From Escherichia coli (GTDB lineage: Bacteria; Pseudomonadota; Gammaproteobacteria; Enterobacterales; Enterobacteriaceae), in NCBI RefSeq assembly GCF_011045215.1, contig NZ_CP049202.1: 64,000 bases of DNA; one strand, 5' to 3'. Position 1 is the first letter of the stretch. Every line of letters starts with the position of its first letter. Shown in pieces: positions 30,001 to 36,000 of this stretch. A program made the position numbers.

Positions 30001-33000
30001 CCAGTTCCACTAAACGGGATTCTGGTGTTGAAGTTGTCTCCAGTAACCTGCCGGTAAGATATAAATGGGATTCAACGCTACCCATCAATGTAATAACCGG
30101 GAATATGATCCCAGTTGGACAGGGACAACAGGTTGACGCCATGAAGTTAATAGTGCAACCACAGAAACAAAACGAGGCAGGACTGACCAGTGGAAATCTA
30201 CGTATTGAAGTGTCGGTCCCCTAACCCATCTGAAATATCAGAAGTGTCTTCCGGGTTATCCTGACCGTGTGGGAAAAACACGACTGCATAAAATGCGATG
30301 TCATCGTGCAAGTTCCCTCGCCTTCGCGGCCCATTGAACGGGGTATCGCAGGACTAGGACTGCTGGCCGCGTGCTGACTAAAGTATACAGAGCACGCTAC
30401 GGTCGTTTTATTAAACCCGCGCCGTTCCTTTAACTGGTTAACCCACTGATGAGTCATACAGTGACTGCATCAGTGGCGCAGATCTGGCTTTTCTTGCCGC
30501 CAGACGCTATCCTGCTGAACATCCTCGGATCTTAGTCTCGATGGCATACAGTTCACCGATACGCTGCAGGGAGAACGCTGGGCACCGACAATCGTAAATA
30601 AAACGTCAGTAAAAAAACAGCGCCCTAAAGACGCTGTAACAACATAAAGTGTTCAGAATTGATAAGTGATCCCGGTGGAAAACAATCCGTTCCATGACTT
30701 GTCTACCATAGGCGAATTTTTAACTTCGTCAGATAAACGACTGTAGCGTGCTGTGCCATACACGCCCCAGTTACCGGCAAAATTATAATTTGTACTGACT
30801 TCCAGATAAGGTGCCCAGTCATTGCCTGCATCATAGACTTTCAGGCCACTACAGGCTGACTCACTATGTGACACGCCATAGTAATAATCGTTCTGTTTCT
30901 GGCTGCTCCACTCCACACCAATTCCCGGTGTTAGGGTGAATCCACCATTCACATAACGGTATAACCACGCTATATCACCAACCACACCATTACTGTTATC
31001 CAGTACATCCGCTGCAAGACTCGTACGCAGGAAACCATATGATGTATTATGAGACCAGGATATTCCCGCCATCAGAGTATTTTTACGTTCATCCAGCCAG
31101 CGTAACCGATAGTCATTACTGTCATCCGGTTTAAAATACATTGGCGACCAGTAAGCCATCACCGACAGCGTGTCTGTCATGTCATTCCAGAGATAATAGC
31201 CTCCTCCCAGTCCTCGAAACCAGAAGGAATCGTTGTTATAAGATACCGCCGGAAACAGCCAGATATCAGTGGTATATTCCTTGTAAGGATGGGCAACCAG
31301 GCCAATACCTGCACCTAGCGTTAATGAACTTTCAGCATGGGCAATATTAAGTGATATAGTGGTCAGCATACTAAGTGCCAGAATTTTAATTTTGTTCATA
31401 AAAATCTTTCCTTAGTCAAAATTTCAGCATGAAAAAGTATACTGATGCAAAAAATGTCGGCAAGAATTCTGTTTTACCCTTACCATCCAGAGTCTTTACG
31501 TTACTCCGACTTACCCCTGTTGTTCTTGCCCCCTTATTTCCACACAAAGTGAAAAAAGCAATGCGTGATTTTTGTCATGATTTTACCCATTCATATTTAA
31601 GAAAAGTTGGCAATGACAGGAATAGAATGCTGGATACATGCAAAATGGCATCTAAATCGATCACAGTTACTCACCGATCTCCTTCACGGTAATACGCATC
31701 AGAAGTCAGTTTGTCGTACAATTCGACTATCCGACAACGTTTTCCGCATATGAAAACGCCATTTTTGAGGATGAATATTCCTCTCACCAGCCTCTGAACG
31801 AAAAACAAGTGATTTCCGTCAGGGAGGAATAGCTTAGCGGGTGTTATCGCAGAAATTCCCACGGAGACCCTTATAGTACAATAATTTTCGATATCCAAAC
31901 TGACCCATATAAGGCCAGCAGGGAGCCCCGTGCAGCCATGGCGCTGAGAAAAATCGCCGGCCTTTACCGCATTGAGAAACTCATCCGCGACCGTCCTGTG
32001 GAAAAAATACGGCAGTGGCGACAACGGTACTCCCGGCCGATAGTTAATGACCTGTTTGCCTGGCTTGAAGAGCAGGAGCCGTGCTGTCCGCCCGACGGGC
32101 CATTAAATAAGGCGATTAACTATATCCTGAACCGACGCGATGAACTGAGCTGCTTCTTGGGTGACGGAGCCGTGCCCCTGGACAACAATATCTGCGAGCG
32201 AGCTATCCGCCCGGTGGTCATGGGGCGGAAAGCGTGGCTGTTCGCCGGATCACTGATGGCCGGAAACCGCGCGGCACAGATAATGAGTCTTCTGGAAACA
32301 GCAAAACGTAATGGTCTGGAGCCACATGCTTGGCTGGCAGACGTCCTGACGCGTCTGCCGGAGTGGCCAGAGGAGCGACTGGCAGAGTTATTGCCTCTTG
32401 AGGGATTTACCTTCACCGGGTGAGTGATACCTGCCGTCAGGTGTTCGTGCATCGGGCCATAACCTGCAGTCGGGAGTTGAACACCTGACGACAGGAAATG
32501 AGCCAGGCCAGCAACCACGCGGGCTGACAGAGAATCAGAACCTGAATCAGCCCGGAGTTATTCCCGTGTCAGTACTTCACGACCTGACGCAATTACCCGA
32601 CTCAGTACTTCAGAGCCCACCGCCGGTACCTGCCCGGCGATCCCCCCTGTACAACCCCATCGTCAGACGGCGCTCATTCGTATGCGCTGCCAGTGACTCG
32701 CCTGAAAAATGCGTCAATATGAGTTCGCCGGAACGATACGAGAAACACAAAAAAGCGGCGTCAGAAATCAACTTTAAGCTCGCGTTCCAGTTTATCGCGA
32801 CAGAAATAATCCGGCGGGGACTATCCCGAAACGACTGGAGCATCTGCGGGGTGCTCTGGAAGCTGTGTTCATAACAAAACGCCCTCAACCATCAAGGTCG
32901 AGGGCAGTTAAGATATCAAAAACCCGTTATCCGGTGAAACGCAGTACCACTCCGCTTAAGTGAACAGCATTACCCCAATGGAGGTTTTTATTGGATGAAT

Positions 33001-36000
33001 TAACTTGTATGACAAGGGGTACAGCAGTAGTAACATCCATTGATTTTATGCTCTGGCCAGCGGCTTTTTGCACTCAATACTGCACCATGACAGGATGAGT
33101 GATGGCCCAGAGGAATTTGGTTCTCTGACGCTGGCATGTAAGAGCAGCCATTGGTCGCATCATGTACTTCATGATCACCATTTAATTGTGGATTCTTGTT
33201 AATTATATAATTAGGCATTTACATATCCATTGTTAGCAATTGCAAATTAGACTGCTTATTTTCCTTTTAAAATAAATGGTTATCAAGCGTGTTGGATTAA
33301 TTTCCAGGTTACGCCTTTTCCATTGTATGGAGGCATTATATTGCCTTTAGCAATCGGTGCTGTAGTTGAAGGGGTTCCGACCACTTTCCAAATCCCACTT
33401 TCAGGGCATTTTTGTCCGGTAGATGCAGTTGTTCCAATTGGTACTTTAGACATCCTGATTCCTCTTTTGTGTTTTATCCGTATTGTTTTTGTGTAGCAAT
33501 ACAAATGTCTATATTTAGGAATCTGTTTTCAAGAGAACGTTGAGGACATTTTTTACGGCAGTGATCGCTATCACACTTTTACTTAAAATTGGGACGACAA
33601 ACGATAGGCATACTGAGAAACTGAAATTTTTGTACGCATCGCTCGTTCAGCGATGGAGTCTCCCTGCGCTGCAATAACGCAATTGTACAATATTGTACGG
33701 TTGCCAAACGTGGCTCAGATACAATGTGCCGTCAGCCAGTCTTATGGTTATATGTTTGTAGTCTATCTTATAATCAGTTTTTGATGGTGTTCAGTGACGG
33801 AACCATCTGGAGCAGAATCCCCGTTTTTCAGAACGATTCAGTATTGTTCATGATAGCCAGAAAATGGTTTTCGAAACATAGATGAATCCAGAAGTTAGCT
33901 AAGCAGGTTCACTCGATGGTACAACCTGGAACACAAGCACACCTGTATTGCAGGCTTACAACCGCCAAGATATTGACACCACTTTTGTTGCTTGTGCAGT
34001 ATTGTTTTTCATGCTCTCCACCTGGTCCAGAATATCTTGAGGCCCGCCAAGACAACGGAACCGATGGTCACTTCTGTTTTCCTGGCGGTGTTAGCAGAGA
34101 CAAATCAATAGACTGCGTGAATATCGATGGTTGCACCACATGCCTGAGCATATCTTGTCAAAGTTTTCATACTGGCTCCTAAAGGATTACTTTCCAGCCG
34201 GCTGATGGCTGACGGGCGTACCCCCATTCGTTCGGCCAGCGCTGACTTTGTTAACCCCGCTTTTTCTCTCATTTCGTACAACATTTCTACCATCTCCAGT
34301 TCTTTATCGGCATCTTCATAGCCTTTGACAGCTTCCGGAGTATTAAGCAGTTTTTGCTTTACCTGGCTGAACGGAACACCTTTTACTTTCATCATTTCAT
34401 CTCCTTCAGGCGCATCCTGGCGATTTCAATAGCTTTTGTTGGTGTCTTTTGCGTCTTTTTCACAAATGCATGCAGCAGATAGATTTCATTACCCGTTGCA
34501 TAAGCGTACAGTGTCCTTGCGACATTTTTATCCCCGACTCTCAGTTCAAAAAGTCCTCCACCAATTACACGGCTGTGAGGCATTTTCATTTTATTGCCTT
34601 CCTGTTCCAGCCGTTCAATCAATCTGGCCATGCGACCACGTAGATTATCTGGTAATTCAATCAACTCATTCAGTGCGGCCGGGTGAGTAATCACATTAAA
34701 CATATTATAGCCTCCGAAAGGATAAAATACATCAGAACAGGAAAATTGCACAAATATAAAATTTCACTGATAAGTGAAACACATGTTAAGTACAGTTTTG
34801 ATGCCGCGTCAGCGGCATGGAAGGCGGCACTCCGTTGTAGCATATGGCGCAGGAGTAAAACCGCCGAAGCCCGGCGTAAGCCGATACTGATTGATAGATT
34901 TCACCTTACCCATCCCCGGCCCTTGTATGTAATAGGACTCGATGGCTAGCTACCATCATATGAAGCAGAGTGAGCTTGTCCCAGCCCTGAACAGTCAGAC
35001 TTTGATTAGCAGCAAAAGCCCTCTGCTGTAAGCGTCAACGGAGCACCGTATTGACGCTTATTTATTGGTGAGAACCACGTTCCATGGCAGGAGTTCGTCA
35101 ACACGGTTGGAGGGCCATTCCGGCAGTACGCTCAGAATATGGCGCAGATACGCTTCCGGATCGATACCGTTCAGACGGCAGGTGCCGATCAGCCCGTATA
35201 GCAGTGCACCACGCTCGCCGCCGTGATCGCTACCGAAGAACACGTAATTTTTCTTTCCAAGACAGACTGCACGAAGCGCTCTTTCCGCTGTGTTATTGTC
35301 CGTCTCCGCCAGTCCGTCATCACTGTAATAACAGAGGGCGTCCCACTGATTCAGTACATAGCTGAACGCTTCGCCCAGTCTGGATTTTTTCGACAGCGTG
35401 CCATTCTTCTCCACCATCCATTCATGCAGCGACGTCAGTAACGCTTTGCTTCGCTGCTGTCTGACTGCAAGACGCTCTGACTCTGGTAATCCCCGTATCT
35501 CATCCTCGATGGCGTACAGTTCACTGATTCGCTTCAGGGCTTCTTCTGCCGTCGCACTTTTGCTGCTGATGTATACATCGTGGATTTTTCTCCGGGCATG
35601 GGCCCAGCACGCAACTTCTGTCAGCGCACCACCTTCACGTTCTGCACTGAACAGCCTGTCATAACCTGTGAACGCATCCGCCTGCAGGATACCCCGGAAG
35701 GGGCGGAGGTGTTGCTCCGGGTGTTTCCCCTGCCGGTTCGGTGAGTACGCGAACCAGACCGCCGGAGGAGATGACGAACCCGCATTGCGATCATCCCGGA
35801 CATACGTCCAGATGCGCCCTGTTTTCGTCTTTTTCAGGCCCGGTGCCAGTACCTTTACCGGTGTGTCGTCAGTGTGAAGCTTGCGGGTATTCATCACATA
35901 ACGGTACAGGGCATCATTCAGCGGTGTCATTAACTGGCAGCACGCGTCAACCCAGTTGGAGAGTAATGCACGGCTCAGTTCGACACCCTGTCGGGCAAAG

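Follow-up and report, generated by a model that had tools for sequence, protein, structure and literature searches.

Two small-protein genes of separate families, ORF56 and ORF72, adjoining in the cargo of a mosaic Escherichia coli plasmid

The stretch of DNA analysed here, referred to as the window, covers 64,000 nucleotides (nt) of Escherichia coli contig NZ_CP049202.1 (assembly GCF_011045215.1), and the subject of this report is a pair of small open reading frames (ORFs) on its minus strand, ORF56 of 56 amino acids (aa; 33283-33453) and ORF72 of 72 aa (33000-33218). The overall picture, which we hold to be probable, is that of two unrelated single-gene cargo cassettes in a mosaic plasmid rich in insertion sequences (IS); they would have been acquired separately and joined by recombination, with the terminator of ORF56 lost in the process. 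Judged by homology and substitution patterns, both ORFs are genuine protein-coding genes under purifying selection. An earlier note on this DNA had proposed homology searches and the ratio of nonsynonymous to synonymous substitution rates (dN/dS) as checks, and on both counts the ORFs were found to be conserved in related sequences and constrained. As found, the pair is ordinary, two hypothetical small-protein genes in mosaic plasmid cargo; they are further members of catalogued, unstudied families, and their juxtaposition is local.

The two genes and their joint position

ORF56 (MSKVPIGTT...KLIQHA; MSKVPIGTTASTGQKCPESGIWKVVGTPSTTAPIAKGNIMPPYNGKGVTWKLIQHA) is preceded on the same strand by the Shine-Dalgarno sequence AAGAGGAA (33459-33466), the GAGG core of which stops 7 nt short of the ATG, and this ribosome-binding site is conserved across five enterobacterial plasmid copies. 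ORF72 carries six cysteines (C25, C43, C62, C65, C66 and C69), and HEVHD was read from the sequence at residues 16-20 and GCYYCCTPCH at residues 61-70. These two ORFs, the cysteine and histidine motifs and the strong ribosome-binding site of the 56-aa ORF had been listed in the earlier note, and all of them were present. The same note had called the DNA unannotated; the exact proteins are already on deposit as E. coli 'hypothetical protein', in 61 and 53 contigs, respectively. As a chance background, 58 ORFs of at least 30 aa were listed within 5 kb, and since ORFs of such size are common by chance, the reality of the pair rests on homology and purifying selection.

For ORF56, a word-seeded HMMER search collected 1,096 clusters of homologues, the best 120 of which were 75-89% identical to the query, and among the sources of homologues were Serratia, Klebsiella, Yersinia, Desulfovibrio, Akkermansia muciniphila, Sphingobacterium, Bacteroides, Lutibacter and Neotabrizicola. 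The Akkermansia muciniphila cluster alone was drawn from 97 contigs, the longest of 2.77 Mb. In an alignment of 30 sequences, 20 of the 56 positions were invariant, including CPESG-x-W, PPY, W50 and the C-terminal Ala. When the window, Serratia and Akkermansia copies were compared, nucleotide identity was 74-77%, the proportion of synonymous differences (pS) was 0.73-0.75, which is saturated, and the proportion of nonsynonymous differences (pN) was 0.06-0.11, or 0.06-0.09 for the window copy against either of the other two at a pS of about 0.74, indicating that the conservation of ORF56 is due to selection and not merely to recent transfer. For ORF72, pN was 0.12-0.23 and pS again saturated at 0.78-0.94, and the sense frame alone was consistently open.

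The two families were found apart from each other, as none of the ORF72 loci inspected carried an ORF56 relative and none of the ORF56 loci inspected carried an ORF72 relative. ORF56 stands alone with its own terminator on Yersinia plasmid p29807, on a colicin N plasmid and on 5-kb Klebsiella and Leclercia plasmids. It is also a lone gene in the Serratia and Akkermansia chromosomes, and across the neighbourhoods covered it was monocistronic. The plasmid terminator is a G+C-rich hairpin present in the Leclercia, Yersinia, E. coli, Klebsiella and Serratia copies and followed by a T-run in the four plasmid copies, and the window copy is without it. At the DNA level the window matches the Leclercia cassette up to the ORF56 stop codon and no further, and the place of the terminator in other copies is occupied by an AT-rich spacer of 64 nt between the two genes (33219-33282, minus strand), which is loosely similar to the ORF72 leader of a Citrobacter plasmid.

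That ORF56 and ORF72 constitute one two-gene system, such as a toxin-immunity or regulator-effector pair, or an accessory of the nearby RelE/Xre toxin-antitoxin pair, is quite improbable. The two genes share a strand and the 64 nt that separate them hold no terminator, the same arrangement was present in a second assembly (L002), and ORF72 relatives often sit beside a small ORF, namely a 69-aa ORF of phrog_3909 in 16 of 34 distinct prophage variants, in either gene order, and one of phrog_11939 in two loci. However, no other inspected locus pairs both families, the small neighbours from phrog_3909 and phrog_11939 are unrelated to ORF56 (hhalign probability 0.1-0.2%; a common origin with ORF56 was rejected on the same comparison), and none of the 329 plasmid records with the RelE/Xre module carries positions 33580-34027 on the ORF56 side. 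The tandem pairing and the toxin-antitoxin link that had been drawn from the sequence are best regarded as local accidents of this plasmid.

With the ORF56 terminator missing and ORF72 in its place, co-transcription of the two separately acquired genes is probable. ORF72 would then be read through from the ORF56 promoter, and the transcript would likely end at an intrinsic-terminator-like hairpin on the minus strand (32880-32906), about 94 nt past the ORF72 stop, which has a stem of 11 bp, 7 of them G-C pairs, with TTTTGTT after it, and overlaps the start of an IS4-end match (32900-32977) by 7 nt. Some observations weigh against a shared transcript: the case for it comes solely from the missing terminator, a weak promoter-like TTGATA-17-GAAAAT lies at 33286-33258 in the spacer, and the ribosome-binding site of the window ORF72 is weaker than those of its Citrobacter and metagenomic relatives.

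ORF72: family, predicted fold and candidate metal site

A first search for ORF72 returned 29 full-length homologues with 48-99% identity. In a profile search against 1.84 billion representatives, 1,519 representatives (clusters at 50% identity) were matched at E <= 1e-3 and 570 at E <= 1e-10, almost all of them 67-75 aa long, and a larger collection gave 1,825 clusters, the best 120 of which had no Pfam domain and no name beyond 'hypothetical protein'. By profile comparison with PHROGs v4, ORF72 is a member of phrog_4298, a family of unknown function (E = 4.1e-24, 85.6 bits, residues 1-71 on profile positions 1-69 of 70), with which it shares the pattern NGDHEVH...C...C...GCxxCxxxCH and the length of about 70 aa. 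The window copy is plasmid-borne and does not differ substantively from phrog_4298; its identity to the prophage copies that were compared, from Streptococcus Javan and E. coli lambdoid prophages, is 45-49%. The family is thus large, with more than 1,500 representative clusters, and in the searches made here it had neither a Pfam model nor a solved structural relative: no Pfam family was matched even when 92 members were scanned singly, and Protein Data Bank sequence searches with three profiles, which covered both families, gave nothing below E = 0.2. Searches of NCBIfam, Pfam, PADLOC and Rfam yielded no assignment, PADLOC-DB v2 had no match for ORF56 or ORF72 at E <= 0.1, and neither family was found described in the literature searched on YjzC, on the sequence motifs, on p29807 and on small ColE1 plasmids. 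Fusion partners were dropped as a clue to ORF72 function because mis-called starts or read-through seem to account for the longer members of the family.

The AlphaFold2 model of ORF72 is a compact alpha/beta fold (predicted local distance difference test score, pLDDT, 85.5; predicted template modelling score, pTM, 0.73) with strands at residues 3-7, 15-20, 34-39 and 58-61 and helices at 43-53 and 67-70. Its confidence was lowest over the C-terminal CxxCxxxCH stretch, as might be expected since the metal is absent from the model. A Foldseek search with this model matched 119 AlphaFold database models from Gammaproteobacteria, Firmicutes, Bacteroidota, Actinobacteria, Fusobacteria, Spirochaetes and candidate phyla, nearly all named 'Uncharacterized protein', and the best 50 were about 60-110 aa long except for one of 394 aa. 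The model superposed on AlphaFold database members of the family with TM-scores of 0.8-0.94, and against afdb50 uncharacterised family members alone were returned.

Across 106 representatives, the family residues E17, H19, C25, P29, N33, L37, G38, C43, A46, A50, G61, C62, C65, C69 and H70 occur at frequencies of 0.84-0.99, and all of them are present in ORF72. Among the candidate ligands, H19 was conserved at 0.99, C62 and C65 at 0.98 each, C43 at 0.93, C69 at 0.90, C25 at 0.89 and H70 at 0.84, while E17 reached 0.97; the exceptions at C25 mostly have a Cys one or two positions off. Six of the eight members lacking C43 were also without C69, compared with 3 of the 97 that keep C43 (Fisher p = 1.4e-6, uncorrected for phylogeny). 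This distribution suggests a core His/Cys3 site (H19, C25, C62 and C65) with an accessory, dispensable C43/C69 pair, possibly including H70, and ORF72 is probably a zinc-binding mini-protein with a structural zinc site, in which an alpha/beta mini-domain of about 70 residues would be held by zinc at the four core residues. The conserved His/Cys spacing is as expected for tetrahedral zinc, and as in zinc ribbons, treble clefs and the N-terminal domain of Ada (N-Ada10), a CxxC knuckle follows a beta-strand and more ligands come from the preceding strand or loop and the start of a helix. Against this assignment it counts that the co-loss statistic ignores phylogeny and that the residues may instead hold iron-sulfur or form a disulfide. 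The metal binding suggested in the earlier note is therefore plausible for ORF72, on ligand conservation, the joint loss of C43 and C69 and the compact model, but it holds as a prediction.

Binding of an iron-sulfur cluster, or a role as a thiol redox protein, in place of structural zinc is unlikely. ORF72 has five conserved cysteines including a CxxCxxxC motif, and two UniProt relatives are auto-labelled '4Fe-4S ferredoxin-type domain-containing protein', but no Fer4-type Pfam match was found among the 92 members scanned, and the CxxCxxxCH of ORF72 differs from the ferredoxin CxxCxxCxxxCP, so that it does not belong to the ferredoxin type. In addition, about 8% of members are without C43, most of them also without C69, yet H19, C25, C62 and C65 are kept, a pattern more in keeping with a His/Cys3 zinc site than with a cluster held by four Cys.

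A distant relationship to the Zn(Cys)4 domain at the N-terminus of Ada, which would make ORF72 a methyl-phosphotriester acceptor or a DNA-binding protein linked to DNA damage, is highly doubtful. Both have their elements in a similar order (a strand and then a Cys, a strand, a helix and a CxxC knuckle), and some relatives adjoin a WYL-domain regulator, UmuDC or a 'DNA repair protein', but the structural match to N-Ada10 was weak, and membership, which calls for profile or clear fold similarity together with a Cys4 set (CxxxC...CxxC), was rejected. Several other types were also set aside. Metallothioneins have a very high Cys content, few aromatic residues and no regular secondary structure without metal; ORF72 has 6 Cys in 72 residues (8%), the aromatics Y4, Y27, W54, Y63 and Y64, and four strands with two helices, and is not of this kind. 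Read from the sequence, H-E-V-H is one residue short of the zincin motif HExxH. By eye and from general knowledge, the deaminase motif H-x-E...PCxxC is a misfit and the protein is too small for it, and an HNH-like beta-beta-alpha unit was rejected by eye as the helix has no conserved His or Asn.

The peptide-precursor reading of the earlier note, under which ORF72 would encode a ribosomally synthesised and post-translationally modified peptide (RiPP) or a bacteriocin with the Cys-rich C-terminus as core peptide, has been largely refuted and is very improbable. A small ORF ending in GCYYCCTPCH invites it, but more than 1,500 representatives, uniform in size at about 70 aa, are conserved from end to end, with the N-terminal NGDHEVH block included, and the predicted fold is compact and confident, both at odds with a leader-core architecture. 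There is no leader cleavage motif, and the plasmid, phage and chromosomal neighbourhoods inspected showed no recurrent gene for a cyclase, dehydratase, radical-SAM enzyme, protease or ABC exporter. The earlier note had itself reported no adjacent modifying enzymes, and none was present in the window or in the identical locus L002.

What the ORF72 relatives have in common is that they are accessory ('moron') genes, whether in prophages, filamentous phages, plasmids or defence and toxin islands. In Streptococcus Javan prophages they lie in the lysogeny module, as also in Staphylococcus phage 187 and a Vibrio inovirus, co-directional with repressor and integrase genes in Javan420 and Javan59 and, in Javan59, adjoining a divergent cro-like repressor gene. 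In E. coli-type lambdoid prophages the relative lies between a lysis cassette (holin, M15 endolysin and a lipoprotein-like ORF) and the small and large terminase subunits, an arrangement also present in E. coli E24377A (NC_009801.1, 1281872-1283272). Staphylococcus phage 187 has a lone relative on the strand opposite to the flanking genes, a Vibrio inovirus and a second, integrated inovirus carry one in the accessory region, and 116 relatives were confirmed in IMG/VR. Stand-alone relatives were found on a 6.6-kb ColE1-type Citrobacter plasmid and on Vibrio, Gordonia, Enterococcus and other plasmids, and other loci lie near genes for TIR, AAA_15/AAA_21 and AAA_13 domains, Tse2-like ADP-ribosyltransferases, a faint NACHT match, and resolvase or IS genes. 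Phage morons such as lambda bor and lom are extra genes that lie between functional modules and that the prophage often expresses. Like them, ORF72 relatives occupy the lysis-terminase slot in E. coli lambdoid prophages or the lysogeny module in Streptococcus; unlike Bor and Lom, ORF72 is a cytoplasmic Cys/His protein of unrelated sequence with no signal peptide or lipobox. ORF72 may be a small module that binds protein or nucleic acid in element-host or element-element interactions, rather than an enzyme or a secreted peptide.

Two kinds of ORF72 neighbourhood were also recorded. In the E. coli lambdoid prophages (L066, 3662-4210; E24377A), an ORF72 paralogue of 49% identity lies beside the 69-aa phrog_3909 ORF and before the gene for the small terminase subunit. 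In two chromosomal loci (L007, 3465-5219; L015, 2501-4219), a divergent WYL-domain regulator gene is followed by a 70-aa phrog_11939 ORF, a 4-nt gap and the ORF72 homologue, with a UmuD/UmuC-like pair alongside in L007.

ORF56: coding strand, family and cassette

In the pair formed by the window and Leclercia copies, an antisense frame with matching wobble positions gives a dN/dS as low as that of ORF56. This frame is interrupted by 2-3 stop codons in the Serratia and Akkermansia copies, in which ORF56 is open and 80-89% identical, indicating that the ORF56 strand is the coding strand. The reading that one or both ORFs are spurious, with the conserved element non-coding or on the other strand, is refuted by such comparisons: an opposite-strand gene call in the Leclercia plasmid and the equally low antisense dN/dS speak for it, but besides the antisense stops, the start, stop and length of ORF56 are kept across hundreds of clusters, and no Rfam match to a known non-coding element, which the earlier note had named as grounds for refutation, was found. 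The opposite-strand call is a 94-aa protein (WP_159340509.1) placed by the Prokaryotic Genome Annotation Pipeline on the plus strand of Leclercia plasmid NZ_CP087285.1 (L001) at 1218-1502, opposite the ORF56 homologue at 1286-1456 (minus strand). Given the antisense stops in Serratia and Akkermansia, this RefSeq call is probably on the wrong strand. On several other small plasmids no gene is called over the ORF56 homologue in the PLSDB gene table, which is incomplete.

The AlphaFold2 model of ORF56 (pLDDT 87.8) predicts an all-beta small protein, which would be a soluble member of a highly conserved family. Its match to Pfam PF14168 (YjzC-like) was faint (independent E-value 0.25, 12.1 bits, residues 11-51 on model positions 8-54 of 55), and when the YjzC model was run against 30 ORF56 relatives, 1 of 30 was matched at E <= 1e-3 and 12 of 30 at E <= 0.1, suggesting at most a weak, distant resemblance short of membership. 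YjzC of Bacillus subtilis, itself uncharacterised, is similar in length and shares the pattern G-x-x-x-P-x-S-G-(V/I)-(W/Y)...G-x-x-(M/F)-P-P...W-x-L, whereas conservation is much stronger within the ORF56 clade, in which the motif CPESG is invariant; as the function of YjzC is not known, the link is mechanistically uninformative. A further, distant likeness came from an uncharacterised neighbour of the Leclercia homologue, here called Protein L (80 aa, WP_159340508.1, phrog_15514; 1841-2083 of L001, minus strand), which matched ORF56 over 50 columns with an hhalign probability of 74.5%. The two have in common the skeleton G-x-x-C-x-x-x-G-(I/V)-(W/Y)-K...IA-x-G...PP...W-x-L, and Protein L differs from ORF56 by an extension at its N-terminus and by two insertions, one with CxxC and one rich in His. 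This likeness suggests that both are part of a wider superfamily of small beta proteins, carried by small plasmids and by phages. Some ORF56-family proteins carry the UniRef name 'Sel1' (A0A240A8F5_SERFI, A0A420B7Y5_SPHD1 and A0A0T9QNX5_9GAMM); Pfam scans of the window protein and 30 relatives gave no Sel1-repeat match, so the name looks like an annotation artefact.

Searching plasmids in PLSDB by tblastn gave 673 records with an ORF56 match, 58 of them full-length, and the full-length copies listed were on plasmids of 2.7-11 kb. Those examined closely were ColE1-type, namely Yersinia p29807 (2,682 bp, with three annotated genes), the colicin N plasmid and the 5-kb Klebsiella and Leclercia plasmids, and further plasmid copies came from Aeromonas and Acinetobacter. 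On some plasmids of 2.7-6.8 kb, ORF56 is among the very few genes besides those for replication functions. The family spreads horizontally, for the most part on small plasmids of ColE1 type. On the Serratia chromosome the homologue stands alone after a 730-nt intergenic region, on the Akkermansia chromosome it adjoins an IS1595 transposase gene, and no copy was found in INPHARED phages. In 615 of the 673 plasmid records less than 80% of ORF56 was covered, and 596 of the 673 were from Klebsiella, which suggests that a truncated copy or remnant of ORF56 is widespread on Klebsiella plasmids.

Within the enterobacterial plasmid lineage, the ORF56 cassette would bring its own promoter region together with the strong ribosome-binding site. 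The hexamer TTGAAA (33527-33532, minus strand), a candidate -35 element, is invariant in the window, Leclercia, Yersinia, E. coli and Klebsiella plasmid copies; a consensus promoter scan also gave the alternative TAGACA-18-AACAAT at 33511-33482, so the -10 element is ambiguous. A CRP-like palindrome, TGTGATAGCGATCACT in minus-strand reading (33560-33575), lies about 70 nt upstream of the putative transcription start and matches TGTGA-N6-TCACA at 9 of 10 positions. The TGTGA/TCAC-like half-sites are kept at the same position in four other plasmid copies while the 6-nt spacer varies, and with TTGAAA as -35 the palindrome is centred near -70, where a class I CRP site would lie. ORF56 may thus be under the control of cyclic AMP (cAMP) and CRP in enteric bacteria, possibly by induction. 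The frequency and range of such sites speak against this, as CRP-like matches in the window were not above chance (2 versus 2.8 expected), no CRP-like site lies near the Serratia chromosomal copy, and conservation is limited to related plasmid copies. A candidate RNA hairpin in the ORF56 leader (GTATTG...CAATAC) was dropped because five copies compared showed no covariation in it.

Just past the ORF56 terminator, three ColE1-type plasmids (L001, L020 and L021) carry sequences similar to XerCD sites of the cer type (ATTTACCATAACATC...GCACCGC), and a similar cer-like core lies about 170 nt upstream of the homologue in L001 and L020. These flanks suggest that the ORF56 gene may sit beside or within a module bounded by Xer sites; next to the window copy there is no cer-like Xer site.

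Of the two genes, ORF56 is the more remarkable by its conservation, which is unusual for an accessory gene, with about 80% identity maintained across Enterobacterales, Bacteroidota, Akkermansia and Desulfovibrio at saturated synonymous sites, and it is an attractive, cheap target for functional work on small proteins. Its product would bind a cellular component that is itself conserved across phyla. A fuller proposal, which we put forward tentatively and consider rather unlikely, is that ORF56 stays so conserved across phyla through binding a universal machine such as the translation or transcription apparatus, with small plasmids carrying it as a host-manipulation or stress factor, and, independently, that ORF72 is an undescribed zinc mini-fold that serves phages and plasmids as a binding module where elements and hosts are in conflict, perhaps in an anti-defence role or as a regulator.

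Plasmid surroundings

The earlier note had placed the two ORFs upstream of the RelE/Xre pair (34105-34751, minus strand; Gp49 and HTH_3 domains in the identical locus of the second assembly). As this pair and both ORFs are all on the minus strand, the ORFs actually lie downstream of it across a gap of 650 nt, and 'upstream' applies only in plus-strand coordinates. The order RelE-Xre-ORF56-ORF72 also occurs in that second assembly. The surrounding 20 kb is a mosaic that is piecewise common to thousands of plasmids, mostly of Escherichia and Klebsiella. None of 5,426 complete E. coli genomes matched 32980-33600, and at the DNA level a single PLSDB plasmid matched this interval, over ORF56 alone, indicating that the combination is rare. 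The RelE/Xre module (34028-34780) recurs in 329 plasmid records with identities of 80-99%, which come to no less than 90% in 296 records (the best listed at 93-94%), and the records are mostly from E. coli and mostly predicted conjugative. The roughly 450 nt between this module and the ORF56 promoter (33580-34027) had no match in PLSDB and no convincing ORF. ORF56 and ORF72 were found elsewhere without the RelE/Xre pair and are not co-inherited with this type II toxin-antitoxin system; on these comparisons the pair is independent of the two genes.

The position between IS remnants, described in the earlier note, was confirmed. On one side the ORF pair is flanked by the IS4-end match and by a C-terminal fragment of an IS66 transposase (31938-32423, plus strand), and on the other, beyond RelE/Xre, by a complete IS66 element with a full transposase (35058-36650). 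The G+C content of the AT-rich interval is 38-40%, versus 55-58% in the IS DNA. A gene for a MipA-family outer-membrane protein (30653-31399, minus strand) lies to the left of the ORFs, and together with the IS66 fragment and the IS4 end it forms a fragmented plasmid segment directly adjoining them.

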